Positions 1 to 14,562 of a stretch of 64,000 nucleotides of DNA are shown piece after piece (position 1 is the first letter of the stretch; each line of letters opens with the position of its first letter). The position numbers and the translations under genes were made by a program. Source of the DNA: Eubacteriales bacterium (GTDB lineage: Bacteria > Bacillota > Clostridia > Oscillospirales > CAG-272); the NCBI GenBank assembly GCA_045634385.1, contig JAZRAE010000084.1, positions 13,425 to 77,424 on the forward strand, read 5' to 3'. The notes under the pieces are model-generated. The model was not told where the DNA came from. It saw only the letters and a list, made by a program, of their open reading frames with translations, and did no database searches.

Positions 1-12
1 ACCGTCTCTCAT
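1..12 (-). CDS. 5' start of the next cluster gene (MRDG..., truncated by the window edge)
   Basis: GGAGGT RBS followed by ATG at 12, immediately after the stop of 14..385. Confidence 0.45.
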
Positions 13-13
13 A

Positions 14-385
14 TTAACCTCCCGAGATGCTGTATCTCTTCGCAACCTTAAACATAAGCGAGCCCAAAAGATTTGTAACGAATCCAACGAATGATATTAC
101 CGTTACTTCATCTGCAATCTTGGAGAGAAGGAAAAAGACGAGAAAAAATATCAGCCACATTACAGGTGCAGATGGCGTGCGAAATATCTGTTTCAGATAC
201 TTAAAAAGGGGGATGATTGCCGCTCCTAAAAGAATAAGTGACAGCCCTGATAGAATGCTTGCATCTTCTCTTGCAATCCATAGAGGAAAGTACGAAAAAA
301 TCGTCACGGCTACGGGTATAATAGATATTCCAATGCCGAGCGTGTTAAATAAAAGGCGCTTTGCGGGGTTAGTCCGTGTTGGCAT
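14..385 (-). CDS. Small membrane protein, about 4 TM segments (possible holin-like protein)
   Basis: 123 aa with four hydrophobic stretches; overlaps the upstream ORF; lies in the phage-like operon. Confidence 0.6.
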   Translation of the reverse strand: MPTRTNPAKRLLFNTLGIGISIIPVAVTIFSYFPLWIAREDASILSGLSLILLGAAIIPLFKYLKQIFRTPSAPVMWLIFFLVFFLLSKIADEVTVISFVGFVTNLLGSLMFKVAKRYSISGG

Positions 386-989
386 TTTCCCTGATCGCCC
401 CCTTCATTTTTGCTATTCTTTCCCCAACGGCATCCTTCTGATATTGGGGTAGAGCAGAGCACATAAAGATATCATATAGCATATCTATTTGCGCATCTAC
501 AACGATTCTCAACTGCTCATTTTCGAGTCTTGCCGCACTCTCGTTTTCAAAACTTGCGTTAAGACTTTCTTCGAGTGCGCCTATTTTTTTACCAAGACAG
601 GTTAGAAGCTCTTGCGTATCATTTAGCTTGCTTTCGATATTCACACCGAGTTGAGAGCTTAACTCGGTGTTTTCTTTAGTGTTTTCTTTAATTTTTGTTA
701 CCGCATTTCCGATAGTTACAAGTGATTTTTCCACAAGGGGTAAGAACCCCTTTTTGTAGGCGAGGGCAAGAGTCATCGAGCCGGTAAAGGTGAGCGCACA
801 AAGTATTTCGCTTGTATATGCGCTGACTTCATGGTACACCTTTTCAAAGAAGTTTGTGTTATCCTCGTATTCTTCGGATTCGTATTCTTTTTCCGTGTAT
901 TCCTCTTCGGCGTATGCATATATCGCACACGGCATAGTAAACATAACGAGGAGAATTGATACAATAAAGTATTTTAGCTTGTTTTTCAT
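369..989 (-). CDS. Hypothetical membrane protein (signal peptide, acidic linker, TM, coiled coil)
   Basis: N-terminus MKNKLKYFIVSILLVMF...AYA, E/Y-rich linker, second hydrophobic segment, heptad-rich C-terminus. Confidence 0.7.
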   Translation of the reverse strand: MKNKLKYFIVSILLVMFTMPCAIYAYAEEEYTEKEYESEEYEDNTNFFEKVYHEVSAYTSEILCALTFTGSMTLALAYKKGFLPLVEKSLVTIGNAVTKIKENTKENTELSSQLGVNIESKLNDTQELLTCLGKKIGALEESLNASFENESAARLENEQLRIVVDAQIDMLYDIFMCSALPQYQKDAVGERIAKMKGAIRENANTD

Positions 990-1399
990 TTTTCCATCCT
1001 TTCAAAATCAAATATCTTGTGCCCTCGGCACATAGTTTCAAGATGTGCGACCTTTTTTTCGAGAGAGCAACACGCCTTTTCAAGATTGTAGCATCTTGAG
1101 ATAAGTCTTCTTATGATGGTATCATCGGTTTTTAACATTTCGACAACAGGGCCGATTTTGCAAAAGCCTTCTACGACGAACACACCGATATCAGACTCCA
1201 GCTTAGGATGATATTCTTCGTTATGCAAGGAACTAAGCGGTATTTTAACTTCTCCGTTATTTACCTCAAACATTGAGTTCCCAAGCTTGATAACGCCAAA
1301 GCATTTTGGGGTGAATATCATATGTAGTACGTTCTTGCCATCATCGTCGATAGCTACCCATTCGGCAGTACCGTGTGAAGTTTCATAGCGTATTTTCAT
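986..1399 (-). CDS. Hypothetical protein with C-terminal coiled coil
   Basis: 137 aa ORF overlapping both neighbours; RBS AAGGAGGT. Confidence 0.7.
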   Translation of the reverse strand: MKIRYETSHGTAEWVAIDDDGKNVLHMIFTPKCFGVIKLGNSMFEVNNGEVKIPLSSLHNEEYHPKLESDIGVFVVEGFCKIGPVVEMLKTDDTIIRRLISRCYNLEKACCSLEKKVAHLETMCRGHKIFDFERMEK

Positions 1400-1806
1400 T
1401 ACTTATCCACCTCCTTCTCGCTATTGAGAGATTCTATTTTTCTCTTCAACTCGTCAAGTTCACTGTAGATGGATATCATATGGTTTAATAGACTTTTTCC
1501 AAAAAAGCTGAAATACGTGGCAAAAGCTCCGGTTTGCATATCTTCAAAAAGCGAGTGCAGAGTGTGTCCGTCTTTTATTCCGCTTGGAATGGCTGAAGCG
1601 ATCGAATCCTCTCCGTAACTTGAGACGTCGCTGACAAGTTTGTTGTACTGTTCTATAATGTATAGGGGGAGCTTATCGAATGCTTCCTTCATTTGTGCCG
1701 CGCCGTATCCCTTTCCTCCGAGAGAACGAGGTGCTGTGGGACGAGTTGGGAGAGAGGATATCATTATATCGGCAATGTCGGAATTCAGTATTTTTTTAGC
1801 GTTCAT
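1399..1806 (-). CDS. Putative tail-fibre base/attachment-like protein (short)
   Basis: ATG at 1806 with AGAAAGGA RBS. The motif SSLPTRPT..G.GAAQMKEAFDKLP resembles N-termini of fibre-like proteins that follow the nozzle in Firmicute short-tailed phages (recalled, unverified). Confidence 0.5.
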   Translation of the reverse strand: MNAKKILNSDIADIMISSLPTRPTAPRSLGGKGYGAAQMKEAFDKLPLYIIEQYNKLVSDVSSYGEDSIASAIPSGIKDGHTLHSLFEDMQTGAFATYFSFFGKSLLNHMISIYSELDELKRKIESLNSEKEVDK

Positions 1807-1897
1807 ATTTTTGTCCTTTCTTAAATGCAAGAGGTGTTTGCGCTCGGTGCAATGAGGTTTCACATTGCGTGCAAGTGTGCATTATTATCCCCCCTGC

Positions 1898-4603
1898 TTA
1901 GATGTTGTTTTTAATATTGCCTTTTATGGTATAACGATAACTTATTGAGTAGACAGATAATGGTGAGGCAAATTTGTCACATGATAGTATTACTTGCTTC
2001 TCAATCCAGCGCTTCTCCTTTTCCGGGAGTGCCGTTGCGAGGTAGCGGGGGACGTTCCATGGCATATCCGAGAAGTCAAAGTCATCAAAGCTTGTACCTG
2101 CTGTTGGGAAGCTGCTGATATGTACAGAATCTTGACTGTCTGTTACAATGTCGCATTTAATACTGTTTGCAGCATAGCTCTTGGCCTTTACGATCAGGGA
2201 GTTTTTTACTGTGTTTTTTGTTAGGTGAGGTATGCCGCAATCGTCGAGCGAGGTCTTTATAACATACTTTGCGGGGTGGTGGTCAAAGCTGTAGTAGTAG
2301 GGGTGTATTCTGTTACCCATGAGAGCAGCATATTCCACCTCGTCATATTCATCGGAATCCATAACACTTTGTGGAGCAACACCGCGCATATCATTGTTAA
2401 AAACACAAATGTGACCGTTTTCTGTTGCAAAGAAAAGTAAATTGTCATATGAGATAAACACGGTGGCAGGATGAAAGTCACCGCCAATATATTCTTCGGT
2501 CAATTCAATGGCATACTTGTTTTGGTTTTCCATTACATAAAAGTATGCTTGTCCGTTTATCGCAACGCTATAGATGCAATCACTTACAACCACCTCTCCG
2601 GCGAGAGTCGGATGAGATAGAAATCCCGACGGTGGATTTTTTGAGTATCTGAAGAGCAGTTCGTCATCGATATATCCACCAATATCCGTAAGATAAAACC
2701 ACTCGTATTCTCGTGCGCCGGTTGGGTGTGAGAATATCGATCGTGAGTCAGCTAAAAAGATTTTTCCATTGACACCCACAACGAGATATCCGAGCCACTC
2801 ACACAAAGATGCTTTTGATAAATCTTCTTTAAGTAAAGCATAATTTACATTATGCGATCTACAGACAACATTTCGTTGATAGTTGATGTTTTCGCTGTTG
2901 AGAGCCATCAATCCGTCCTTTGTTAAAAACACAGGGTCGTCAAGGAAGGAGAGAGAGACACCGGTTGAACATATTCCTGAGTGGACGTATGCGACGGGGT
3001 ATATCGTATGTACCGCGCCTTGATCCACCGCCTCCTTCTTGTGGTAGAAGATGCTTCCTGAACCATCGTCTCCTTCTTTGAATACTGCGAGCATGTCTCT
3101 GACAGCGAGGAGTGATTTGACTTTATACCGTCCGCTGCCGTCATTGAAGTAGTTGTATACACCCACATACATTTCCTTTTCGTGATTGTCTTTTGGCATT
3201 TCGGTGTAAAAGACTGTGTTGGGAAAATTCGGGTTTCCGCTTAAGAATACTCTATTGTCAAATACCTCGGCTATTGTGCATCCGGCTATTGCTGCGTATG
3301 ATGTACAAGGGGTAAGAGCCGACATTTCCTCAGACCACTCATCCGAAAGGGGAGCGAGTGTTCCCTTTATTTCAACCTTGACGTTCGTGACGTCTACAAG
3401 ACTTGCGAATTTCACGGTTACGCTTTTCACATATTCACCTTCGTATCTCGGCTCGTATTCCGCTTCTTCACCGTTAAGTGTTACATATTCAACATCATCA
3501 ACCTTTCCGTTCAAGGGCAGTGTTATACATAATTGATCGTATGTGGTGTTGTATGAAATGCTTTTTTGAGTGATTATATCTTTACCATCTATGAGATTTA
3601 ACTCCTCGCTGCTGAGCTCGTAGTTTATACATGTGAGTGACGGGCAGGCTGAAAACGCTGCAGCACCCACGTATGATAGTCCCGCACTGAGATATAGCGA
3701 GTTAAGCTTCGCACAATTGTAAAACGCCTTTTCTCCTATATGTGTGACTGTGGATGACGTTACTACCGTGGTGAGATTTGTACATCCTGCAAAGGCCTTG
3801 TCACCGATTTTTGTCATACCGTCGGGTAGATATATTTCTTTTAGGTTCTGGTTGTTTTCAAATGCGTGGCTATCTACGGAAACGACCTTGTAGCTTATGC
3901 CGGACATATTCACGTAGGCGGGTATATAAATTTGATCATCGGAGTCGTCTTTTATACCCTTGACTGTGCAGAGATTGAGAATGGGATCTGTGATGCCGTA
4001 TTTAACACCGTCCGATGCGTGCAGATATACCTTAGGATCTACAAGATAGTATTCCTCCTTAAAATCCTCTATGAGAAGGTTTCTCTGCTCATATGGTTCG
4101 CCGGAGACATGAGTGGTCGGTATATACGGATAGATGCCGTCCTGACCAATAGTACTGCATTCTCCGTCTTCATTTATGCAGTATATCGTGCTGCCGTCCA
4201 TAATGTAGAGATTTCGGCCGTATTCAAATCCGAAGCTCTTTGTATCCTCAAGCGTGGCAATCTCTTCTCCATAGGTATCTTCCAAGTAAATATCCGACAC
4301 GGGGTGGCGCATAAGCTTGTTTGCGACGTGTGCAATTATATAATCCTCACCGCCCGATGAGGAATGCATGTAAAACAGAGAATGTATCGGCTCTTCATAA
4401 TGAGCAAAGCATCTAAAGCCGGGTACACTCTCAATTACGTCTGCTCCATCACCATCGTAATCCTTATACACGTTTTGTGCATAAGCGAGTCTGTCTGATG
4501 ATGTAATTGATGAGCTGCCGTTTAGCTCAACACCGCGAAACCCTTTGTAAACTTTTGTGTATTCCGCGGTAGAGTAGATCAGATTTCTGTATCTGTTAGC
4601 CAT
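1898..4603 (-). CDS. Putative tail nozzle / head-closure protein (P22 gp10 or T7 tubular-B-like position) with an internal BspA-type LRR domain
   Basis: About 900 aa, beta-rich; N-terminal FRGVEL...RLAYAQNVY; directly after the adaptor; four TxIGxxAFxxCxxL-type repeats at ~3620-4010. Confidence 0.65.
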   Translation of the reverse strand: MANRYRNLIYSTAEYTKVYKGFRGVELNGSSSITSSDRLAYAQNVYKDYDGDGADVIESVPGFRCFAHYEEPIHSLFYMHSSSGGEDYIIAHVANKLMRHPVSDIYLEDTYGEEIATLEDTKSFGFEYGRNLYIMDGSTIYCINEDGECSTIGQDGIYPYIPTTHVSGEPYEQRNLLIEDFKEEYYLVDPKVYLHASDGVKYGITDPILNLCTVKGIKDDSDDQIYIPAYVNMSGISYKVVSVDSHAFENNQNLKEIYLPDGMTKIGDKAFAGCTNLTTVVTSSTVTHIGEKAFYNCAKLNSLYLSAGLSYVGAAAFSACPSLTCINYELSSEELNLIDGKDIITQKSISYNTTYDQLCITLPLNGKVDDVEYVTLNGEEAEYEPRYEGEYVKSVTVKFASLVDVTNVKVEIKGTLAPLSDEWSEEMSALTPCTSYAAIAGCTIAEVFDNRVFLSGNPNFPNTVFYTEMPKDNHEKEMYVGVYNYFNDGSGRYKVKSLLAVRDMLAVFKEGDDGSGSIFYHKKEAVDQGAVHTIYPVAYVHSGICSTGVSLSFLDDPVFLTKDGLMALNSENINYQRNVVCRSHNVNYALLKEDLSKASLCEWLGYLVVGVNGKIFLADSRSIFSHPTGAREYEWFYLTDIGGYIDDELLFRYSKNPPSGFLSHPTLAGEVVVSDCIYSVAINGQAYFYVMENQNKYAIELTEEYIGGDFHPATVFISYDNLLFFATENGHICVFNNDMRGVAPQSVMDSDEYDEVEYAALMGNRIHPYYYSFDHHPAKYVIKTSLDDCGIPHLTKNTVKNSLIVKAKSYAANSIKCDIVTDSQDSVHISSFPTAGTSFDDFDFSDMPWNVPRYLATALPEKEKRWIEKQVILSCDKFASPLSVYSISYRYTIKGNIKNNI

Positions 4604-5439
4604 CACGCCCACCCGTTAACGCGGTATTCCGCATCTATCCTATCGGTAGAGTATCTCTTTATGTTTGCAACAAGATCACGGTACAGGCTCATGTAATACT
4701 GCGCCTTTGCCGCATCGTCATCAAGCCACATAAATGAGGCGGTTAAAAGTGGCAGAAGCTGAACACATTCGTTTGAAATATCAATAGGAATATTTTTTGT
4801 ATCCGCAGAGATGGGCGTTGGAGTTCTGTGATACGTGATGTACATTTTTCCTCTAAAATCATAGGGAACAATTATTCTACCGCCTTCGAGCTTGACCGAT
4901 TCTATCTCGTTTCCATATTCGTCGTACGGCTTTTTTGAAAAGGAATGGAAGTCTCGACACCAGTCTGCAGGATAAAGCTCTCTGTACGGAGTGTATTCCG
5001 GAATATCCGGTGTGTTATTGCTTATCACGTCCTTGAAAACAACGAGGTTGCTAATTGTAAAATAAAAATCACCCGAGAAGGTGATGTTTCCTTCTCCGAA
5101 AACATATTGCTTAGTTATTTGATCTTTGATGGAGAGGGGCACAGTGTTAGAACCTGTACGATCTGTAATTATGCACGTCCCCCTGCCGGAGGATCTAAAC
5201 GAAATGGATTTTCCGTTGAAGGGGATGGTGATAACAGATCCCGATGTGTGTTCAATGAACTCTCGCACAAGTTCAATTCTCGGTCCGCTAAAGACAACTA
5301 TTGCGGTTTTGGATACGGGCCTGTCTGTATATATGAGCGAGAGGGCGCGGTTTGCAGAATCTACAAAGAGGCTTTCATCCTCAATGTAGTTTTCAAATCC
5401 CAAATGCGCCACGTGAGTTTTTAATTCGTTAAAATACAT
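4603..5439 (-). CDS. Putative head-tail adaptor (gatekeeper) protein
   Basis: Follows the capsid gene; helical N-terminus (FNELK...ANRAL) and C-terminal Y.R.P..I...LLPLLTA...DD..KAQYY pattern typical of podoviral adaptors. Confidence 0.55.
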   Translation of the reverse strand: MYFNELKTHVAHLGFENYIEDESLFVDSANRALSLIYTDRPVSKTAIVVFSGPRIELVREFIEHTSGSVITIPFNGKSISFRSSGRGTCIITDRTGSNTVPLSIKDQITKQYVFGEGNITFSGDFYFTISNLVVFKDVISNNTPDIPEYTPYRELYPADWCRDFHSFSKKPYDEYGNEIESVKLEGGRIIVPYDFRGKMYITYHRTPTPISADTKNIPIDISNECVQLLPLLTASFMWLDDDAAKAQYYMSLYRDLVANIKRYSTDRIDAEYRVNGWA

Positions 5440-5569
5440 ATACGGTCCTTTCTTTAAAATTTGGCGGGATGAACGTTCCGGTCTTGCGTAGCATAATGGA
5501 TTTTTAAGCGCTCGATTCCCGCCGACAGATTATCACACGAATGAAGTCGGAAAAGTATCCTAATTCAAA

Positions 5570-5635
5570 AGGCAGATAGGTAAGAGCGAAGGCATTAAAG
5601 CCTTTTTAGAGTGTTAAATTTTATTCTATCTGCCT
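5570..5635 (-). terminator. Long-loop hairpin after the capsid gene (probably a weak terminator or stabiliser)
   Basis: 10-bp inverted repeat AGGCAGATAG/CTATCTGCCT with a short T run on the minus strand. Confidence 0.45.
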
Positions 5636-5656
5636 AACCGTGTAATTTTTCAGCTA

Positions 5657-6718
5657 TCAGAGTTGTGTTGAAGAGTCATGTGCCGTAGCAGAATCCACCG
5701 CGAGAAGAATGTGCTTGTAATTACCGAAGCCTACACCGAATCGGCATCTGCCGTTCCAGTAATAGTTTCCGGTGTGATGATCAACCCAGTTGGATACCGT
5801 GAGAGGAATTCTGTTGAAGAACATATTGCCCGCAAGATTCTTGTTTGCCTCGCTTGACATAATCATAATTCTGTTGTCGGTAGGCTGCCAGTTGGGTAGA
5901 ATTATCACGTTCCAGTTGCCAAAGTGGAGGTTTATATCGTTGTAACCGTTGCCGAGTGCACCGTCACTACCGCATACCTTCTTAACTATTTGTTCGATCT
6001 TAGGTTTGTTGCCCGGGAGAATTATGGTATCTGCGGTGTAGCCGAGTGCCTCACCGTTTTCATCCTTCATGTTTCTGAGCTTTACGGAAAGCTCGGCGAG
6101 AGATTCCTCAAAGACACTTGTAGACAGCACTCTTGAGTCCGAAGTACCGGTTGCAAAGATATCACCGTAGTAGTAATTTGACTGCGTGCCGTTTGTACCC
6201 GATCCGCCGCCCCATGTGTGTGTTGAAGAGAAGAGCGGGAGATTATCCGAGGTCGTTAGATCAATTGAAGAGCCGGCAAATGTACAGGAAGTTGCGGTTG
6301 CGTTTACAAGTGCCGCTTCACAGAGCTTGTTCATTGTCTTGTAGTAGGCTCTTGCAAAGTTTTCTGCTCTGCGTTTTGCATCTATTGCCAGACCATAGTT
6401 GCAGTCTTCCACCATCTCTGCGGTTACGATAAACTCCTTCATATACTGAATATGCTCGATGAATTTTGTTCCGGTTTCGGATACGGTGTCACTTTCAGCA
6501 CCGCTTCCTTCGACAACGGACTTGAAGATACCGAACTCGTTCTGGGTAACTATTGTTTCACCGAACTTGTTACTTTTTTCTACGTTGAAGAGCCAGTCGC
6601 GTATGCCGCCCTTCCTGCTGAGAATGTCGCTTTCGTTTTCGATTACCATTTTGATAGGAAGCTGTATCTTACCGAAGGCGGCATTATTTACAGTTGAATT
6701 TTTAGAATAAATTATCAT
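5657..6718 (-). CDS. Major capsid protein (HK97 fold)
   Basis: 353 aa; position after scaffold/decoration genes; motifs D.LPLFS..H, MKDENGEALGYTADTIILP and RFGVGFGNYK fit a phage MCP. Confidence 0.8.
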   Translation of the reverse strand: MIIYSKNSTVNNAAFGKIQLPIKMVIENESDILSRKGGIRDWLFNVEKSNKFGETIVTQNEFGIFKSVVEGSGAESDTVSETGTKFIEHIQYMKEFIVTAEMVEDCNYGLAIDAKRRAENFARAYYKTMNKLCEAALVNATATSCTFAGSSIDLTTSDNLPLFSSTHTWGGGSGTNGTQSNYYYGDIFATGTSDSRVLSTSVFEESLAELSVKLRNMKDENGEALGYTADTIILPGNKPKIEQIVKKVCGSDGALGNGYNDINLHFGNWNVIILPNWQPTDNRIMIMSSEANKNLAGNMFFNRIPLTVSNWVDHHTGNYYWNGRCRFGVGFGNYKHILLAVDSATAHDSSTQL

Positions 6719-6736
6719 ATTTATCTCCTTTAAAAT

Positions 6737-7129
6737 TTATTTGCGGAACTTGACGTAGACCATTTTCTGATCGTCCTCGATCTGAACAATTCTGCCTTTT
6801 CCGCTTGAGTTATATGTTACCGAGTCCATTTTTGTTTTACCGGTTGCAAGACCGACAGACATTCCTATCTGAGGTGTCGTTGTGCCTGTGTATTCAACCT
6901 TGAAGATCATATCCTCGGTAACGAGCATAGCGTCAATTTGTTTTCTTGCCTCATCGATATTTCCCGTTAGAGAAATGTAATCGGGCATTGCCGTTCCGGA
7001 TGCTAATGTTGCAATTCCGTTAGTGCAGGTAAGAGCGCAACCCGGAGCAATTACAAGAGATTCCGAGTAGTTGAGCTTTGAAATCTCGCACTGATTATTT
7101 CCGTTTAATACTTTTACGAGTCTGAACAA
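6737..7129 (-). CDS. Putative capsid decoration/cement protein
   Basis: 130 aa, beta-rich, between scaffold and MCP; TTG start with AAGGGGT RBS. Confidence 0.55.
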   Translation of the reverse strand: MFRLVKVLNGNNQCEISKLNYSESLVIAPGCALTCTNGIATLASGTAMPDYISLTGNIDEARKQIDAMLVTEDMIFKVEYTGTTTPQIGMSVGLATGKTKMDSVTYNSSGKGRIVQIEDDQKMVYVKFRK

Positions 7130-7148
7130 TGTTTTACCCCTTTCTTGT

Positions 7149-7616
7149 TTACTTAGTTACCTTTTTATAAAGGCGTTGTATATCCGAATCGTTAAGACCG
7201 GGGAAAAGCTCTCTGGCAGTTGCCAGCTCATACTGTGTCATCATATCTGTGGGAGCTGCTGCACTTCTTCCGTGAGCACTTTTCAAATGTGCACGAGTAT
7301 CTTGAGTTTTTCTCTTCGCCGTCGCCATATAAGCCTCTGTGGGTGACAAACCGAGGTCGCGTAAAGCTGCATATCGCAATGGATTGTTAAGCTCGGTGAT
7401 TTCTGTAATATCTCTGAGTTCGGGGAATTCTGCCTTGAGTGCGGCAATATCGCTTTTAATAACTGCCTCGTAATCGATTGCCTCGTCGTGCTTTGTTTCT
7501 TCCGGTTCGGCGAATGTCTCTTCGACCTTACCATCCATACCCGGCATATCTGTGGATTTTGCGTCCTCGTCAGCGAGGGTTACTATCTCGTCTGTGCTGT
7601 AAGCGGCTTCCATCAT
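7149..7616 (-). CDS. Putative capsid scaffolding protein
   Basis: Acidic N-terminus, LKAEFPEL...LSPTEAY, C-terminal RELFPGLNDSDIQRLYKK; ATG at 7616 overlaps the upstream stop. Confidence 0.65.
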   Translation of the reverse strand: MMEAAYSTDEIVTLADEDAKSTDMPGMDGKVEETFAEPEETKHDEAIDYEAVIKSDIAALKAEFPELRDITEITELNNPLRYAALRDLGLSPTEAYMATAKRKTQDTRAHLKSAHGRSAAAPTDMMTQYELATARELFPGLNDSDIQRLYKKVTK

Positions 7617-7768
7617 TCCTTGCCTCCCTTGCATCTTAGATCGTCATTACCTTTAATTATTCTGCATTTCGGTTCGTTTTGCGGCTTGACGGGTGCCGTA
7701 ATTTTACCCAAACCGAGATTTCGGTAGGGCGCGCTGTTATCGATTGTTATCTTGGGTTTCTTATTCAT
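7613..7768 (-). CDS. Small basic virion-cluster protein (51 aa; not in the ORF track)
   Basis: AGAAAGGA RBS; MNKKPKITIDNSAPYRNLGLGKITAPVKPQNEPKCRIIKGNDDLRCKGGKE; ATGA overlap with the scaffold gene. Confidence 0.65.
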   Translation of the reverse strand: MNKKPKITIDNSAPYRNLGLGKITAPVKPQNEPKCRIIKGNDDLRCKGGKE

Positions 7769-7794
7769 ATTATTTTCCTTTCTGATTAGGTTTC

Positions 7795-8502
7795 TTAGTG
7801 CGTTCTTTGCTCAAGAAAATCAAGGTAATCCTTGGATATGGTTCCGTAGTATCTCAAAAGCTCGCTTACCTCATTTGCCAATGCATTGGAATCGTCCTCC
7901 GAGACACCCATTTTTAGAGCGAGCATTTTTGCCCCCTCACTGTCGAGTCCAAGGCTTGCCGTCTGTTCGAGAATTTTGTTGAAGACCTTTTGCTTAGTTA
8001 CCTCGTAAGCACTTTGGCCAACAAATTCGGCATCCTCCTTTGAAAGGCCCGCACTTATTCCGTAGGCTACCGCGGTGTTAAGATCCACGACGTCATTGCT
8101 TATAAGATGCGACATTACGCTCTTTTTAAGGCCTGACGTTTTGTCAGCGTAATTGTCGAGATATGACGCATATGACGTCATCGCCTTTGTGCGGTTTTCG
8201 CCGTATTGCTTTTCGAGTGATTTGAGTCCTGATTTAAATGAGCTTTTAGCTATATTGTCAATATAATCGGAATATCCACTGTTTTGCAAACCTTTGTTAT
8301 TAATTTTACGCATGTTCTCGCCGTAAGAGGATAATGCACGCTTGGATGATGCATAGAGCGATCCGACAGCGTCGGAATAACTTTTAGCATCTTCGAGTCC
8401 GTTTTTGTGTTTATAGAGATCGAATGAGTCAGCCGATCCTATCGTACTGTTTGAACCGAGATATTTCTTAACAAGCTCTTCGAGTGTATTTACTTTACTC
8501 AT
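7795..8502 (-). CDS. Hypothetical helical protein, possible ejection/internal virion protein
   Basis: ATG at 8502 overlaps the portal stop, RBS AGGAGG; 235 aa, S/A/K-rich, with a KGLQNSGYSDY motif. Confidence 0.55.
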   Translation of the reverse strand: MSKVNTLEELVKKYLGSNSTIGSADSFDLYKHKNGLEDAKSYSDAVGSLYASSKRALSSYGENMRKINNKGLQNSGYSDYIDNIAKSSFKSGLKSLEKQYGENRTKAMTSYASYLDNYADKTSGLKKSVMSHLISNDVVDLNTAVAYGISAGLSKEDAEFVGQSAYEVTKQKVFNKILEQTASLGLDSEGAKMLALKMGVSEDDSNALANEVSELLRYYGTISKDYLDFLEQRTH

Positions 8503-10214
8503 AAAGTTATGCCTCCTGTACCTACGTCTATATCTGAAAAGTACTCCACGTTTTCTCTTGCATATGGGTAGTGTGCTCTTTCTTGGCATTGCCAGTAGCG
8601 GAGCAGAGTAGCGGGGCTTCCCGGATCTCCGAGAGTGCCCGCCTTCAAATTTTCGAGATTTCTTTGCCAAAGCGATTCTCTTTGATATTCGTTTCCGCCA
8701 TTAAGATCTACCGAGAATAGATAAGCATCATCATAGAAGTGGCAATCCCTTCTTGGATCGTATTCTATAAAGTCATATCTTGAAAATTCCGTTTCATGTA
8801 TTCTGCCGTATGCATCCTTGTATGAGAGGGTTCTTGGCTCATCTGCAAAGGCAAGATAGAGCGAAAAGATGATCTTATCTATTCTTGCGTAAACGGTATG
8901 CTTCATCTTTTTCTTTGATAAGAGTCTTCCGGATGCTTGATTGATTCTCAGTTGCTTTGCATAACCTGATTCGGCATATACTCCTGTGTCAACACCCTGA
9001 AATGCATCGGATATACCAATAACTCTTTTGGCGTGGTCGTAAAGTCTTTCTGCCTCGGCAATATCTTGAGATATGTCGGGGGTCGTGTCAACTTTTCCAT
9101 ACTGCGCGGTGCTTTCTCCCGGCTTCATTTTGATAACCTGGCCAAAGACTGAGTTGTTCAAGGATATGCTCGCGTCCTCAGGTACTATGGGAGTAATACC
9201 TGCACGAAGAAGTTTTTTCAGTATCCTTGATTCCACCTTGTTTATCGCTTGCTGTTCGGGCCTTATGTAGTCGCAGTCAGACTGTCCGAACAACTGCTTT
9301 TCTGCCGAAGTATTCTTTCTGATAGCTATAGGAAAGAGCTTTGGAACATAGTAGGGAATATTGACAACTCGCATTTCGTTTTGGCTATGGATGATTTGCT
9401 CACTTTCAACCTCTGTCATTACGATCTTTTTATTTTTGCAACGGCAGACTTCCTCATCCTCGCCGCATAAGGTGCAGACCTTTTTCTTTCTTCTGTAGTA
9501 TTTTGGAAGGTCGGAAAGGGTAAGATCACCCGAGAAGATAAATCTGCCTATCTCCCCGTCTTCGTCGCGGTAGAAACAGGTTACTACCTTAACAGTATCC
9601 GATACGTCCGATCCGCCGTCGTACTCGTACTCAAAGTCGGCAAATGCTGTTTTTTCCTCGGATATGCCGTACGTTCTTGTTAGCTCGCTTCTTGTTGTAA
9701 CAAACTTTAAGAAACAGTACTCCATATCGTCGATATCGTATATATTAGGTTGAGGTACAAAGTCACAGGGTGAAAGACATTCAACCTTCACACCGCCGAT
9801 CTCACCCATATATTCGGACGTATTGTCCCAGTCAATATACCACACGCTGCCGCCATAGATGTAGGTGTACCTTTCGTCTATATCATTCATTTCGTCGAAA
9901 GGCAGACGCTTTCTTATCGATCTTAACAGCCTTTCTATCGATGTGGCATTCTTTCCTCGCTTCTCACTGTATGAGGTAGCATCCGTCTTTGGGGATGGGA
10001 TATCGGAGCTTACCTGACTTTCCACTATCTCGTAGGTGATGTTTCTGACTGTAATTGCCGCCTCGTCTGAGCCGTCGATCTCCGTCGAGCCTTTGTACTG
10101 TCGCATGGCTCGATCAAAGTCCTCAAGCTTCGAGGCGTAAGCGTTTTCGGCGCACGTATAAAGAGTTTTGAAGAACTCCAGCTTTAGCGCCTCGTTTTTG
10201 TTTTCAATTTTCAC
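8499..10214 (-). CDS. Portal protein (P22-like size)
   Basis: 571 aa directly after terL; motifs EIVESQV, FGQSDCDYIR.EQQAINK, IGISDAFQG, SGYAKQL. Confidence 0.8.
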   Translation of the reverse strand: MKIENKNEALKLEFFKTLYTCAENAYASKLEDFDRAMRQYKGSTEIDGSDEAAITVRNITYEIVESQVSSDIPSPKTDATSYSEKRGKNATSIERLLRSIRKRLPFDEMNDIDERYTYIYGGSVWYIDWDNTSEYMGEIGGVKVECLSPCDFVPQPNIYDIDDMEYCFLKFVTTRSELTRTYGISEEKTAFADFEYEYDGGSDVSDTVKVVTCFYRDEDGEIGRFIFSGDLTLSDLPKYYRRKKKVCTLCGEDEEVCRCKNKKIVMTEVESEQIIHSQNEMRVVNIPYYVPKLFPIAIRKNTSAEKQLFGQSDCDYIRPEQQAINKVESRILKKLLRAGITPIVPEDASISLNNSVFGQVIKMKPGESTAQYGKVDTTPDISQDIAEAERLYDHAKRVIGISDAFQGVDTGVYAESGYAKQLRINQASGRLLSKKKMKHTVYARIDKIIFSLYLAFADEPRTLSYKDAYGRIHETEFSRYDFIEYDPRRDCHFYDDAYLFSVDLNGGNEYQRESLWQRNLENLKAGTLGDPGSPATLLRYWQCQERAHYPYARENVEYFSDIDVGTGGITL

Positions 10215-11575
10215 TGCGGTTCTCCGTATTTTTGTTTGAGATATTTTTTGCCTCCCTCGTCTGCGGCGTCATAATCCTCCCACATATCCCTCGTCCACGT
10301 AGAACGTTTAGCTACAACCTTCTTTTCGTTGGGACGAGTGTGAAAAATGGCAAAGCCTCGCAGAGCATCGGGGGCGTGTGTGATTTCGTGGGGCTCGTTT
10401 GCGCAATCCGTAGGCCTGATTTTATCCACAGTAAGTGCGGGAAGGCACTTGATCAACTCGCTGCAGTTTTTGAAGATCTTAAGCCTTATCCCCGCGCCCG
10501 TGTCACATAAAAGCTCCTTTATTGCCAGCCATCCGCACTCTCTGTCGTTAGAAGTTTTGGTAAAGGTAACGCCAAATTCGTGGAATAGGCTTGCCTTTGT
10601 TTTGCCCGACTCCTGTGTTCTTGCGAATAGGTCGGGCGGAGCCAGCGTTGCGTATATATCTTCGCCTGTCGGAGTTCTGTCGGTTATTGCCTTTGCCGCG
10701 GTGCTTATCGGTAATCCCGATTCACAAAATTCGCGGTATACGTAAGAACGCTCATCTGGTGATACGGCTATCCATAATACTGCCAAACGGTCAAGACCGT
10801 AGTCGATAGTCCTGTATTTTCTCCATCCCGGCGGTATTTCAAAGGGCTCACACACGTGCTTTTCTGTTGAAAACTCGGTAAAATACTGTCCCTCAAAAAT
10901 GTTGCAATCTCTGTAGAGTAGGTCTTTTCTCTCCCATTCGGGCAGAGCCTCAAGACGCAGTTTGTAGTTTGGATCGCTATTTGTAAGAAATCCGTTGTCC
11001 CCGAGCAGAGAAGGGAGAAACACGCGCGTCATTTCTCCCTCGCCGACGAATGTTTCTCCGCTTGGGGATGGATCGATAAATCTTTTTTTAACCCAGGAAT
11101 GCCCCACGCCCCCGGGGTTAGTGGAGGATTTGATCTGTTTTGGAAAGGCGTTTGCACCTCTCACTCTCGAAATCAAATATACGTATTGCATTTCGGTGAA
11201 ATGCGTCAGCTCGTCAAATCTTATAAGATCATATTCCGCGCTTTGGTATTGATAAACGTCATTTTCGTTAGCACAGTATCCAAAGTCAATGCACGAGCCG
11301 TTCTTGAATCTGCCTGTATGACTTGATGAATTGAAGGAGTATATCTCTTTTGGATATAGACCGAGACTTGTGCGTATCAAGGATTTATCAAGCTCTGCAA
11401 AGGTACGCCTTAGGATCAGCTGCTTTGATCCGGGATATTTTAGTGCGAAAAGCAAAGCATCCACGATTTGTCCGTAGGATTTTCCGCCGCCGGCAGCCCC
11501 GCCGAACAGCACCTCGTTTTCTCTTGCATCTATGAATTTCTTTTGCTTTTTCGTTACCTTTAGATCAAGCCTCAT
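10211..11575 (-). CDS. terL: Terminase large subunit
   Basis: Walker A GGAAGGGKS, Walker B IRFDE, coupling motif STNPGG, nuclease motifs IDYG and HAPDALR. Confidence 0.93.
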   Translation of the reverse strand: MRLDLKVTKKQKKFIDARENEVLFGGAAGGGKSYGQIVDALLFALKYPGSKQLILRRTFAELDKSLIRTSLGLYPKEIYSFNSSSHTGRFKNGSCIDFGYCANENDVYQYQSAEYDLIRFDELTHFTEMQYVYLISRVRGANAFPKQIKSSTNPGGVGHSWVKKRFIDPSPSGETFVGEGEMTRVFLPSLLGDNGFLTNSDPNYKLRLEALPEWERKDLLYRDCNIFEGQYFTEFSTEKHVCEPFEIPPGWRKYRTIDYGLDRLAVLWIAVSPDERSYVYREFCESGLPISTAAKAITDRTPTGEDIYATLAPPDLFARTQESGKTKASLFHEFGVTFTKTSNDRECGWLAIKELLCDTGAGIRLKIFKNCSELIKCLPALTVDKIRPTDCANEPHEITHAPDALRGFAIFHTRPNEKKVVAKRSTWTRDMWEDYDAADEGGKKYLKQKYGEPQ

Positions 11576-11912
11576 CGCCTATCACCTCAAGTGTTACTTG
11601 TATTTCCTTGTCAGTATCTATGTCCTTGTCACCCATACCGAACTCCGAGGTTAAGATAAACTTTGTAAATGAAGAGTCAAACCGTTTTACCAGCCCATTG
11701 TCAATCAGATAATCTCTGCGGATTTCGCTGCACTCTTGGTAAGCCCTCTCAAATTCATTTTTTTCTCTAAACCCTTCGATGTCGGATAGCGTTGCCCCGA
11801 TACTTCTCGCAAATTTTGAGAAGCTTGGAGCTCCGGGTCCCTCATATCCGTGGAAAAATGTATATAGCCTCCTTGGAAGATCGCTTGTATATTTCGAATG
11901 ATTTTTCTTCAT
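11565..11912 (-). CDS. terS: Putative terminase small subunit
   Basis: 115 aa immediately upstream of and overlapping terL; HTH-like PSFSKFARSIG; ATG at 11912 with AGGAGG RBS. Confidence 0.7.
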   Translation of the reverse strand: MKKNHSKYTSDLPRRLYTFFHGYEGPGAPSFSKFARSIGATLSDIEGFREKNEFERAYQECSEIRRDYLIDNGLVKRFDSSFTKFILTSEFGMGDKDIDTDKEIQVTLEVIGDEA

Positions 11913-12063
11913 ATGTCTTATCCTCCTGCCAATGCGGTTTTGTCGCGGGAGCATTGAAAAATGTTCGCTTTGCTCCTATATCCTTTGGCTCTATAGCACC
12001 TCGGGATTTCTCAACGTTCATGACTCGTTGAGGCGTCATTTTCTCATCGGCAAGACCATTATA
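11913..12063 (-). promoter_or_regulatory. TATAAT box and structured 5' leader of the virion operon
   Basis: TATAAT at 12063-12058 with no good -35; stem TCTTGCCGATG/CATTGGCAGGA covers part of the RBS; several internal helices. Confidence 0.45.
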
Positions 12064-12144
12064 CCTCACCCCGTGTGAAAAGTAAGTAGAGTACCAATCC
12101 AAAAAAACAGTACGCTCAGTTTCTGACTTTTGTCAAAATAGCAC

Positions 12145-12170
12145 AAAAAAAGCCCCCTTTTTAGGGGGTC
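12145..12170 (-). terminator. Intrinsic terminator-like hairpin upstream of the virion operon
   Basis: CCCCCT-AAAA-AGGGGG then C and T7 on the minus strand. Confidence 0.55.
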
Positions 12171-12223
12171 GAAAAACGGTAAGGTTATTATGCGCTGTTT
12201 TTGTAGTTCTTGTTGTGTTGTGC

Positions 12224-12268
12224 AAAAGGGAAAAGAGTAAGAACGAGTGTTGCCCATTCTTACTCTTT
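12224..12268 (-). terminator. Intrinsic terminator of the ABC-F gene
   Basis: 12-bp stem AAAGAGTAAGAA/TTCTTACTCTTT with a T-rich tail on the minus strand. Confidence 0.7.
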
Positions 12269-12288: not shown

Positions 12289-14220
12289 TTACATAACTAA
12301 TTCGTAAAGCTCAAGAAGTTCTTCTTCGATCTTTACCTTTTCTTCTTCTATCTCAGCGGCTCTTACGTAGTTGGATGCCGCGTCGCCAAACAGCTCTTCT
12401 TCAAGCTCCAAAAGCTTGCCTTCAAGCTCGGGGATTCGTTGCTTCGCTTTTTCCACTCTTTTCTCTTCCGAGCGGCGCTTGGCGTTTTCGCGCTTTCTTT
12501 CCTCATAATCTGCCTTTGAGTCAGAGGTTTTTATTACGGCGCTTGTTGCTGCATTTCTTTCCTTTATTATCTGACGCATACGCATATATTCGGAGAATGC
12601 ATCATCGTAGCTCTCAAGCTCATAGTCGCGCATCCCCTTGTCACTTGTCGGATCAAGCTCTATGATTCTCGTTGCTACCTTATTAATAAAGTATCTGTCG
12701 TGAGACACCGCGATAATCGTGCCGGGGAAGGCTATGAGCGAACTTTCGAGCGCCTCGCACGATCCTATGTCAAGATGGTTGGTTGGCTCGTCCATTATCA
12801 AGAGGTTAACCTTCTTTAAGATAAGCTTTGCCAAAGTGAGTCTTGCTCTTTCTCCACCCGATAGTGTAGATATTTTTTTATCAATATCGTCTGCGCCAAA
12901 GAGGAACAGAGCAAGGGTGCTGCGAAGCTCGAGATCTTTTTTCTCGGGGTATTCGTCGTGCATTTCCTCAAATACGGTCTTTGAGTCGTCAAGACCTCTG
13001 TTCTCCTGATCGTAGTAGCCTATCTTTATATTATATCCGAGTGTGATGCGTCCCTCTTTGGGTACAAGCATCGAGTTCATCAGCTTCATAAGAGTGGATT
13101 TGCCCGAGCCGTTAGGACCGAGGAACATCACTCTCTCATCCTTTCTTATAAGGAAGGAAAGATTCCTGATAAGCGGCTTTGTTCCGTAGTCGAAGGTCAG
13201 CTCCTTGACTTCCATTACGTCGCCTGCGCTCTCCTCCTCTGCGGTAAATCTTACACGGATATCCTTTGGAGCCTTTGGTGCAAGCTCTACAAGCTCCATT
13301 CTTGCGAGTTGTTTTTCCTTGGAGCGTATCGTCACGAAATTGTGCTCGCGGTTACATCTGCGCTGAAATTCTATATTTGCCTTAATTCTGGCAATTTCCT
13401 TTTGCTGCTCTTTGTATCTCTTTTCGAGTGAAGCCGCCTCTGCCTCTTGCTGATCCTTACACTGCGAGTATGAGCCGTGGAAGAGTCTTGCCTTTGTATA
13501 TTGTATATGAAGCGTTTTATTTGTCGTGCGGTCGAGAAAGTATCTGTCGTGCGAGATTATCAGCACCGTCTTTTTGTAGGATGCTATATATCCCTCAAGC
13601 CATTCGAGCGCATCGATATCAAGGTGGTTTGTCGGCTCATCGAGCATAAGGATATCAGGCTCGGTTGCAAGCAGACGCGCAAGTGCCAATCGTGTATACT
13701 GTCCGCCCGAGAGGGTGCGGATTCTTTGGTTGATTAGTCCTTCTTCGAAGCCGAGTCGCATCAGCATTCCGCGACAACGCGAGCGAAATTCAAGTCCGCC
13801 ATCCTCGGAGAATTTTCTGCTCTGCTCGTTGAGCCTGTTTGTCAACTCCGCGACCATATCGTGATCACCCTTGTTTGCCGCTTGTGCAAGTAGGGTTTCG
13901 GTTCTCGTTATAGCCGATTCAAGCTCAAGAAGCTCGGGGAACGCCGTATACATATATTCAAGGCAGGTCACCTCGCCCGGCAGGGCGGTAAGGTCGGGGT
14001 TTTGTTCAAGCATACCGACCGTGTGTCCTTTTTGAATGTATACCGCTCCCGAGTCAGGATCGTTTACTCCTGCTATAATACGGAACAAAGACGTCTTACC
14101 CGCTCCGTTTACACCGATAATGCCGACTCTGTCACCGTCGTTCACCGCGAAGGATATATCTTTTAGAATTACGTCCGTGCCAAAGGCGAGCGAAATACTC
14201 TCTGTTGAAAGTGCAATCAT
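12289..14220 (-). CDS. ABC-F family ATPase (ribosome-associated, YdiF/Uup-like)
   Basis: Two ABC domains (GVNGAGKT, LSGGQ, DEPTNHLD; GPNGSGKS, LSGGE), no TM segments, C-terminal coiled coil. Confidence 0.92.
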   Translation of the reverse strand: MIALSTESISLAFGTDVILKDISFAVNDGDRVGIIGVNGAGKTSLFRIIAGVNDPDSGAVYIQKGHTVGMLEQNPDLTALPGEVTCLEYMYTAFPELLELESAITRTETLLAQAANKGDHDMVAELTNRLNEQSRKFSEDGGLEFRSRCRGMLMRLGFEEGLINQRIRTLSGGQYTRLALARLLATEPDILMLDEPTNHLDIDALEWLEGYIASYKKTVLIISHDRYFLDRTTNKTLHIQYTKARLFHGSYSQCKDQQEAEAASLEKRYKEQQKEIARIKANIEFQRRCNREHNFVTIRSKEKQLARMELVELAPKAPKDIRVRFTAEEESAGDVMEVKELTFDYGTKPLIRNLSFLIRKDERVMFLGPNGSGKSTLMKLMNSMLVPKEGRITLGYNIKIGYYDQENRGLDDSKTVFEEMHDEYPEKKDLELRSTLALFLFGADDIDKKISTLSGGERARLTLAKLILKKVNLLIMDEPTNHLDIGSCEALESSLIAFPGTIIAVSHDRYFINKVATRIIELDPTSDKGMRDYELESYDDAFSEYMRMRQIIKERNAATSAVIKTSDSKADYEERKRENAKRRSEEKRVEKAKQRIPELEGKLLELEEELFGDAASNYVRAAEIEEEKVKIEEELLELYELVM

Positions 14221-14377: not shown

Positions 14378-14562
14378 ATTGCATAAATATTCATTTTTGG
14401 TCGAATAAATTCGTTTTTCTCGAAAAATATTTTCGCGTATGCACAAAAAATAAAAGCTTTAAAATCCCAAAAATATCTATAGGTTTGTTTAATCTGCACA
14501 AATTTCAATTAATTTAAAACCGATATGAATAAAAATGCAACAAAAATGAATTATTTTTCAAA
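14378..14562. promoter_or_regulatory. ArgR/AhrC ARG boxes
   Basis: ATTGCATAAATATTCATT (14378-14395); tandem TATGAATAAAAATGCAAC and AATGAATTATTTTTCAAA (14524-14562) 3 bp apart. Confidence 0.7.

Follow-up and report, generated by a model that had tools for sequence, protein, structure and literature searches.

A conserved podovirus-type particle gene cluster in a genus of gut Clostridia, candidate for a gene transfer agent-like locus

To our knowledge, only a handful of gene transfer agents (GTAs) have been recognized. The first one of podovirus-like form, FpGTA of Faecalibacterium prausnitzii, dates from as recently as 2024–2026 and is at the same time the first to be described in a gut commensal (PMC12946183). 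Its operon of ~10.5 kb combines terS and terL with portal, scaffold, and capsid genes and with genes of the short-tail type; fibre and lysis genes form a second locus of 5.5 kb, and the capsids of ~40 nm hold 8.4–8.9 kb of host DNA (PMC12946183). That account states that the small terminase subunit (TerS) has no obvious DNA-binding domain, and it reports that other Ruminococcaceae, Oscillospiraceae, and Christensenellaceae package DNA in a GTA-like manner, with the responsible gene clusters not identified (PMC12946183). The podovirus-like kind of GTA is not new in itself, as FpGTA has already been published (PMC12946183). Here, we describe a podovirus-type virion gene cluster at the left end of a 64,000-nucleotide stretch of a draft Eubacteriales genome. 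Comparisons across the host genus show that inheritance of this locus has evidently been mainly vertical from before the time when the genus radiated, and that selection has kept it intact. We consider it fairly probable that it is a domesticated podovirus-type particle locus, GTA-like and of the same kind as FpGTA. No published description of the cluster turned up, no search having been aimed at one.

The window, i.e., the whole stretch of 64,000 nucleotides that was analyzed, corresponds to contig C84:13425-77424 of genome G000 (2.38 Mb in 128 contigs, 85% complete, 3.8% contamination), and coordinates are window positions unless another contig or locus is named. The cluster consists of 14 intact, co-oriented open reading frames (ORFs), all on the minus strand and transcribed from right to left. 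It extends 812 bp beyond the left edge of the window, and the contig itself reaches 13.4 kb left of the window. Family identities were derived from PHROG and Pfam profile matches, with bit scores set against the Pfam cut-offs. In the order of transcription, the features are as follows.

12153..12268, minus strand: two terminator-like hairpins past the stop codon of the ABC-F gene (stems 12268-12232 and 12168-12153, a T-run after each)
12058..12088, minus strand: promoter-like motif TACTTAC-N18-TATAAT, ~100 nt upstream of terS (conserved motif and spacing)
11565..11954, minus strand: terS, small terminase subunit, 129 aa (phrog_3064, E 3e-10; Pfam GP3_package, E 1e-4, below cut-off)
10211..11575, minus strand: TerL, large terminase subunit, 454 aa (phrog_979, E 1e-42; Terminase_3, 45.4 bits against a cut-off of 23)
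8499..10214, minus strand: portal, 571 aa (phrog_156, E 3e-32; P22_portal, 28.3 bits against a cut-off of 26.1)
7795..8502, minus strand: conserved basic 235-aa protein with no assigned role, its likely start being M57 of the listed 291-aa ORF
7149..7634, minus strand: acidic 161-aa protein, scaffold-like by position and a net charge of -11; no family match
6737..7129, minus strand: 130-aa protein, possibly decoration/cement (position; weak match only of the homologue in the type-B phage described below)
5657..6718, minus strand: major capsid protein, 353 aa, predicted HK97 fold (AlphaFold2 pLDDT 83.7; phrog_371, E 4e-6)
4603..5439, minus strand: probable head-to-tail adaptor, 278 aa (Pfam SU10_adaptor, E 3e-5, 25 bits, below the cut-off of 27)
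1898..4612, minus strand: tail nozzle, 904 aa, with a BspA-type leucine-rich repeat (LRR) domain inserted at ~residues 190-330 (AlphaFold2, Foldseek, LRR_5)
1399..1863, minus strand: probable fibre anchor, 154 aa, whose N-terminal domain heads 479-1122-aa proteins in other species
986..1399, minus strand: 137-aa protein in a variable region after the fibre anchor, with a 42% identical orthologue in G023
369..989, minus strand: 206-aa protein with an N-terminal membrane anchor (hydropathy, residues 5-27) and an acidic coiled-coil part (net charge -12)
14..385, minus strand: holin-like 123-aa protein with ~3 transmembrane segments (hydropathy; 33-57% identity in relatives; no family match)
1..87, minus strand: last cluster gene, 299 aa (274 from M26), with ~4 transmembrane segments by hydropathy; the whole gene is L001:12612-13511

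The virion architecture was examined with two structural models, both built with AlphaFold2 from orthologue alignments. The capsid model matched the capsids of HK97, SU10, and RcGTA in Foldseek (E ~1e-10), and a PDB sequence-profile search with the capsid protein gave nothing significant. The model of the 904-residue protein (pLDDT 87) matched the nozzle proteins of cyanophage A4, T7 (gp12), SU10, and P22 (gp10) with E-values from 3e-18 to 1e-10 at a sequence identity of 5–11% to solved nozzles. Its inserted domain was identified by LRR_5 (E 6e-23), and a PDB profile search of the nozzle matched the LRR insert only. We also observed that G000 has dozens of BspA-type LRR loci, spread over many contigs (C44, C45, C57, C59, C61, C80, C91, C99, C105, C114, and others), whose repeats show 30–43% identity to the insert. 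The gene between those of the capsid and the nozzle encodes the probable adaptor, for which a PDB profile search was marginal (E 0.002). None of the 14 ORFs matched a tape-measure, tube, or sheath family, and the nozzle is the sole ORF longer than 600 residues. Together with the nozzle fold, this supports the short-tailed, podoviral architecture.

Of the packaging and head genes, the portal fell 0.2 bits short of SU10_portal (29.8 bits, cut-off 30). An alignment, judged by eye, revealed a TerS core of ~100 residues with a helix-turn-helix (HTH)-like motif that is also found in related temperate phages. The 291-aa ORF overlaps the end of the portal gene, and its G023 orthologue begins after the portal stop codon; the resulting basic 235-aa protein gave no family match with PHROG, Pfam, or a lax Pfam scan. 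The 161-aa protein is homologous to the 276-aa product of a gene upstream of the type-B phage capsid gene. The type-B homologue of the 130-aa protein showed a weak match to Phage_cement_2 (E 0.0096), and a PDB profile search of the 130-aa protein itself returned nothing significant. These two are possibly a scaffold and a decoration protein, labels that rest on gene position and weak hints. The lax Pfam scan of all small cluster ORFs produced noise only.

The distal part of the cluster includes a stretch of variable gene content. The fibre proteins of G004 contain YadA_head repeats (L018:1-1171 and L047:9574-10764), and the 137-aa gene following the fibre anchor is elsewhere replaced by a region of 0.4–2.8 kb. 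The 206-aa anchored coiled-coil protein is conserved throughout the genus, and the last cluster gene adjoins the holin-like gene in most species. A PDB profile search with the last gene product found nothing significant, and no relative with a name was found for it in the protein atlas. Together, the membrane proteins of the last three genes may constitute a release module.

An earlier note on this DNA had described the cluster as a stand-alone podovirus-type virion operon. Its gene content and the absences it reported are confirmed, with all 14 ORFs intact, and so is the short tail it proposed. It had the orientation wrong, as the genes lie on the minus strand, it set the right end at 11912 where terS (11565-11954) extends to 11954, and the ~380 bp it gave between the cluster and the ABC-F gene are really 334 bp (ABC-F stop at 12289). 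Two of its gene labels need correction, and it left five ORFs after the nozzle unlisted.

The flanks of the cluster in G000 contain housekeeping genes only. On the right, the two hairpins between the ABC-F gene and terS are predicted to insulate the cluster from upstream transcription; a 63-aa ORF running across them was judged spurious. On the left, the last cluster gene is followed by a strong GC-rich terminator, a promoter-like site, and a gene for a DinG/XPD-like helicase. No integrase, repressor, or replication gene was found inside or beside the cluster on either flank, nor were there bracketing direct or att-like repeats or a nearby tRNA gene. This is also what the leftward extension proposed in the earlier note brought out, neither side showing an integrase, a replication module, att repeats, or a tRNA. 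From the lack of bracketing repeats and of a nearby tRNA, and from the terminators on both sides, we therefore predict that the element is ~12.9 kb long and a single transcription unit.

The cluster is nearly universal in its genus. Orthologues of TerL with 61–88% identity were present in 22 of 24 other species, without an internal stop among the matches listed, and the two negative genomes are 72% and 76% complete. The capsid protein was detected in 193 of the 213 species genomes of the genus, mostly at 65–90% identity and in most genomes as a single match, with one stop codon among the matches listed. Among genomes that are at least 90% complete, 69 of 74 were positive. The five high-quality negatives lack the portal as well and retain DinG and ValRS, and four of them form one clade in the ValRS tree (support 100), sister to G014. 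No cluster genes were found at the DinG flanks of three genomes of this clade. Because four of five negatives fall into one clade and these DinG flanks are empty of cluster genes, we read the absence as one loss in one clade and not as patchy presence. Patchy presence and frequent pseudogenization in relatives, which the earlier note had named as observations that would speak against its reading, were thus not seen: presence is near-universal, and almost no pseudogenes appeared in the TerL and capsid scans. The gene order was kept in every locus examined, apart from the stretch after the fibre anchor and a permuted cluster in G014.

Outside the genus, relatives are sparse and distant. A family-wide scan of 201 genomes from 97 genera gave matches in 27 genomes and 17 genera, with identities of at most 54% beyond the genus. 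The closest records in the phage collection searched are two unannotated faecal scaffolds with 25–33% identity in portal and capsid and the same gene order; MT836833 is a remote faecal relative (portal 33%), again with the same order. Metagenome-assembled genomes with the labels Oscillospiraceae, Allofournierella, Ruthenibacterium, and Lachnospiraceae contain kin of the faecal scaffolds, and a full prophage with an integrase occurs at least once among these kin. A single contig scan with the MT836833 portal returned 17 loci, among which there was no Faecalibacterium record. The named close homologues of the capsid protein are labelled "[Clostridia bacterium]". The stretch was partly present in five DNA gut-metagenome runs from two studies, with no RNA run among them.

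The cluster genes have largely diverged together with the host. Mantel correlations with ValRS distances were 0.80 for TerL, 0.70 for the portal, and 0.79 for the nozzle, each reached by 0 of 5000 permutations; a first test with mixed marker coverage had given r 0.35. We compared the element tree with a species tree of four markers (ValRS, GlyRS, PcrA, and YgiQ) on 20 genomes. The two have 8 of 17 splits in common, including the deepest (Mantel r 0.60), and label permutation yielded on average 0.18 common splits with a maximum of 3. A strong conflict for G013 with a two-marker tree of ValRS and GlyRS (p-AU 5e-9) was an artefact of the species tree, because addition of PcrA and YgiQ moved G013 to its position in the element tree. 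A remaining G001 conflict is not significant (p-AU 0.09).

Purifying selection is apparent in the closest pair, G000 and G023, from the ratios of nonsynonymous to synonymous substitution rates (dN/dS). TerL has a ratio of 0.055, the adaptor one of ~0.06, and the capsid protein one of 0.09, and the small ORFs lie at 0.19–0.31, at a dS of at least 1, where synonymous sites are saturated; the ValRS ratio is 0.03. The value far below 1 that the earlier note had anticipated is borne out by this range of 0.05–0.3. The GC content of the cluster is 43.8% and that of the genome 43.1%, and the tetranucleotide distance corresponds to the 33rd percentile of random host chunks. Such host-like composition does not discriminate, because a co-resident phage is also host-like.

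This co-resident phage, a temperate podophage here called type B, occupies contigs C101 (1-28818) and C108 (1-4626) of G000 (loci L044, L045, and L031). It encodes, in the same order, homologues of TerL (48–50% identity), the capsid protein (48%), the scaffold-like gene product, adaptor, nozzle, fibre anchor, and terminal membrane proteins. In addition, type B has the gene of a tyrosine integrase beside terL, that of a polyvalent protein of 2924 aa containing an ART-PolyVal domain, and, on the opposite strand, an early block with SSB, C5 methylase, DUF1064, and HTH protein genes. The focal cluster thereby looks like a type-B phage minus integrase, polyvalent protein, and early genes. In the capsid tree, the conserved clusters of the genus are monophyletic (support 99/99), and type B forms a separate clade that crosses genera, one member coming from another genus. 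Because the type-B nozzle gives no LRR match, the LRR insert of the focal nozzle may derive from host surface proteins. Type-B-like elements were also noted in G004, G046, and G116.

We analyzed the surroundings of the cluster in other species as well. The greedy ORF caller gave spurious antisense ORFs, especially in high-GC loci, and the conclusions about flanks rest on a Pfam scan for that reason. The scan found no integrase or recombinase among 57 flank ORFs of 13 other species, which are mostly metabolic or housekeeping genes. The DinG side is conserved in G000, G023, G010, G003, G007, and G001, and synteny between G010 and G000 covers ~30 kb, reaching YgiQ and PcrA. The same ABC-F neighbour, which the earlier note had thought worth looking for in related genomes, adjoins the cluster in G000, G023, G010, G156, and one IMG/VR contig, but not in deeper clades.

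Upstream of terS, the motif TACTTAC-N18-TAnAAT directly follows a terminator in 7 of 12 regions, all from the clade containing G000; no regulator was identified. Within G000, the motif has five regular-expression matches, of which four carry a common module of ~130 nt made up of a terminator hairpin, TTTTGGAnnGGTACTCTACTTAC, 17–18 nt, and TATAAT. The four copies (hairpin, GGTACTCTACTTAC, N17-18, TATAAT) lie at C87:~11850-12130, C51:~14390-14530, C38:~6750-6960, and 12058-12200 of the window. The three copies outside the cluster precede paralogous proteins of 131–154 residues, which are similar to the N-terminal winged-helix domain found in initiators of phage replication. The profile of this winged helix-turn-helix (wHTH) family included a TerS row, and most of its matches were terS; only matches starting near profile position 16–20 were counted. 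The family is sparse in the genus by this count, and the link between the module and the cluster is therefore a lead, not a finding. The fifth, looser match, without the extended module, precedes a ComEC-type competence gene (C126:16106-18352) by 239 nt and is probably due to chance. The terS leader matched no Rfam family above threshold, and its fold is unremarkable (z -0.28). It contains a hairpin, CTCAACG...CGTTGAG (11980-12010, minus strand; no Rfam match), whose counterpart in G023 (L032) is TTCACCG...CGGTGAA, with two apparently compensatory changes.

From the gene content, two predicted protein folds, and the evolutionary pattern, we infer particle formation, DNA content, and transfer along the following lines. 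The locus would be the remnant of a temperate podovirus that encodes only packaging, head, short-tail, and membrane proteins. The conserved promoter would fire on some host signal, upon which the capsid protein, portal, and scaffold would form a small HK97-type head. TerS and TerL would fill the head with DNA, and the adaptor, the LRR-bearing nozzle, and a short fibre would complete a podovirus-like tail. Release would be aided by the membrane proteins of the last three genes, which include the holin-like one. Having no replication, integration, or lysogeny function, the locus could therefore not propagate as a virus, and its particles would mostly carry host DNA, which would make it a GTA in the sense of FpGTA.

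The GTA-like reading of the earlier note is supported as far as the sequence goes, every check that could be run having come out in its favour. Several observations weigh against it. The locus is known from its genes, predicted folds, and evolutionary pattern, and all genomes compared are draft assemblies, including G000 at 85% completeness and 3.8% contamination. PHROG, Pfam, and lax Pfam scans recognized no endolysin in the cluster; as for endolysin families in G000, GH25 is absent, and three Amidase_3 and one Amidase_2 genes are all located outside the cluster, the surroundings of the Amidase_2 locus not being phage-like by ORF layout alone. Capsid distances do not track the host (Mantel r ~0 against ValRS, not significant); the match with the species tree that the earlier note had expected of TerL and the capsid protein alike was found for TerL, as for the portal and nozzle, but not for the capsid protein. 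The species tree lacks 9 of the 17 splits of the element tree, and conflicts for G008, G014, and G017 remain. The chromosomal position is stable only within subclades, with other neighbours in deeper clades; synteny around DinG itself also decays between species. The G014 cluster is complete but circularly permuted (loci L046 and L021): it opens with the genes from the scaffold-like one through to the last, and terS-terL-portal follows on the same strand. In G001, terS is preceded at a distance of 19 bp by a phage replisome-organiser gene (L017:15443-16447), with a topoisomerase gene beyond it, and a repressor-like gene (CI/LexA-like HTH_3 plus Peptidase_S24) and a DUF6291 gene adjoin the cluster in G222 (L052:16350-17771). 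Unlike what is stated for FpGTA, TerS here keeps an HTH-like core; loss of the DNA-binding domain of the FpGTA type is therefore not seen, and specific packaging would be possible.

Some of these observations fit a still-mobile parasite, either a helper-dependent satellite or a late operon that is served in trans, e.g., by type-B phages. The HTH-like TerS core is common to type-B phages, relatives of which co-occur with the cluster in G000 and G004, the permutation in G014 looks as if the cluster had been re-integrated from a circle, and phage-type replication or repressor genes adjoin it in G001 and G222. Some conflicts between the trees and the change of position between deep clades point in the same direction. 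We nevertheless regard such a parasite as quite improbable, since neither the vicinity of the cluster in G000 nor the 57 flank ORFs of the 13 other species contain an integrase, att-like repeats are missing, the divergence of TerL, portal, and nozzle follows that of the host, and the conserved clusters form a monophyletic group, confined to the genus and mostly represented by one match per genome. The presence in 193 of 213 species, with four of five high-quality negatives in one clade, argues against mobility as well. An inert prophage remnant whose decay has not yet begun would account for a locus without lysogeny, replication, or recognized lysis genes. It is close to refuted by 14 intact ORFs, by genes that are intact across the genus, and by dN/dS values of 0.05–0.3 despite saturated synonymous sites in the closest pair, and we give it hardly any credence. 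More room is left for a domesticated particle with a non-transfer role, such as a PBSX-like killer or a delivery or adhesion device, which packages DNA only incidentally. The comparative evidence is the same for this explanation as for a GTA, as it shows domestication and not function, and both the adhesion-type LRR domain of the nozzle and the strongly variable fibre genes suit a role directed towards other cells. The conservation of TerS, TerL, and portal is no weaker than that of the tail genes, though, and DNA packaging itself therefore appears to be under selection; furthermore, Pfam scans found no toxin or lysin domain in the cluster. On balance, we think a non-transfer role unlikely.

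Going beyond the GTA-like reading, we tentatively propose a more specific history, which we hold to be possible but rather doubtful. The domestication, in which a temperate podovirus with a nozzle of the T7/SU10 type became a genus-wide GTA, would be ancient and independent of FpGTA, the particle would be aimed by its LRR domain, its dedicated promoter module would in G000 be common with three small wHTH genes descended from phage replication-initiator domains, and the type-B wild relatives would still infect the hosts. If so, podovirus-type GTAs would have evolved repeatedly in gut Clostridia, and a domesticated form and its wild relative could be seen side by side. The locus provides a concrete candidate gene set for the GTA-like packaging seen in Clostridia lineages without named genes. 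Its boundaries are clear, its putative promoter is conserved, and the genome that carries it also holds a related true phage for comparison, within a genus represented by 213 species genomes. Should host DNA travel in the particles, these would serve uncultured gut bacteria as a major route of gene flow, and the wild and domesticated pairing would also reveal which modules domestication removes and which it retains.

A few neighbouring genes are recorded here for completeness. The ABC-F gene upstream of the cluster (12289-14220) matched the NCBIfam "ribosomal protection-like ABC-F family protein" with 445 bits (cut-off 380), and its product is 68–94% identical in relatives. Leftward beyond the helicase gene lie genes for an esterase, MTA nucleosidase, LuxS, glycine-tRNA ligase, a MiaB-like enzyme, and HPRT, and rpmH-rnpA-yidD-yidC-jag-mnmE stand at the contig start (L001:3-4153). 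The mnmE-jag-yidC-yidD-rnpA-rpmH set is usually found near the replication origin, and the cluster would presumably sit within ~10–20 kb of oriC in the G000 lineage. SLOG-type genes were seen beside the cluster in two species, a DprA-like one (DNA_processg_A) in G010 (L015:16437-16925) and YpsA in G024 (L025:422-1030), and the last cluster gene product had a very weak SLATT_5 match (E 0.035). These SLOG-type neighbours and the SLATT_5 match may be coincidence.

Among known systems, capsid-forming phage-inducible chromosomal islands (cf-PICIs) and PBSX-type defective prophages resemble the locus in being chromosomal, in encoding capsids and terminases, and in their ability to package non-viral DNA. 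Integrase and replication genes are part of cf-PICIs, which are not known to have genes for tails; PBSX retains a contractile tail together with a repressor and lysis genes. The focal cluster differs from cf-PICIs in having podovirus tail genes and no integrase or replication genes. Nor did it show the integrase, att repeats, repressor, or replication modules of an integrated temperate prophage, whereas type B carries an integrase and early genes. With the tail machines of SU10, T7, and P22 it has the portal-adaptor-nozzle architecture in common, and its predicted nozzle fold is that of T7 gp12, SU10, and P22 gp10; the LRR insertion is particular to the focal lineage.

RcGTA is siphovirus-like, with tube and tape-measure genes. 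The present locus differs from it in the adaptor-nozzle podovirus tail and in belonging to another phylum. Like RcGTA and other alphaproteobacterial GTAs, it is a structural-only head-tail cluster under vertical inheritance, with some topological conflicts and a capsid protein off the host pattern, and under purifying selection, and the capsid folds match. In G000, it is made up of genes for structure and packaging, with none for replication, integration, or lysogeny; in G001 and G222, a phage-type replication or repressor gene is adjacent. From FpGTA, whose fibre and lysis genes stand in a second locus (PMC12946183), the locus differs in its host genus and in having fibre-like and holin-like genes within the operon, where no endolysin was found. 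It shares with FpGTA the form of a chromosomal operon of gut Clostridia, ~10 kb in size, that has packaging, scaffold, capsid, and short-tail-type genes, stands without other phage modules and is present in (nearly) all members of its genus (PMC12946183).

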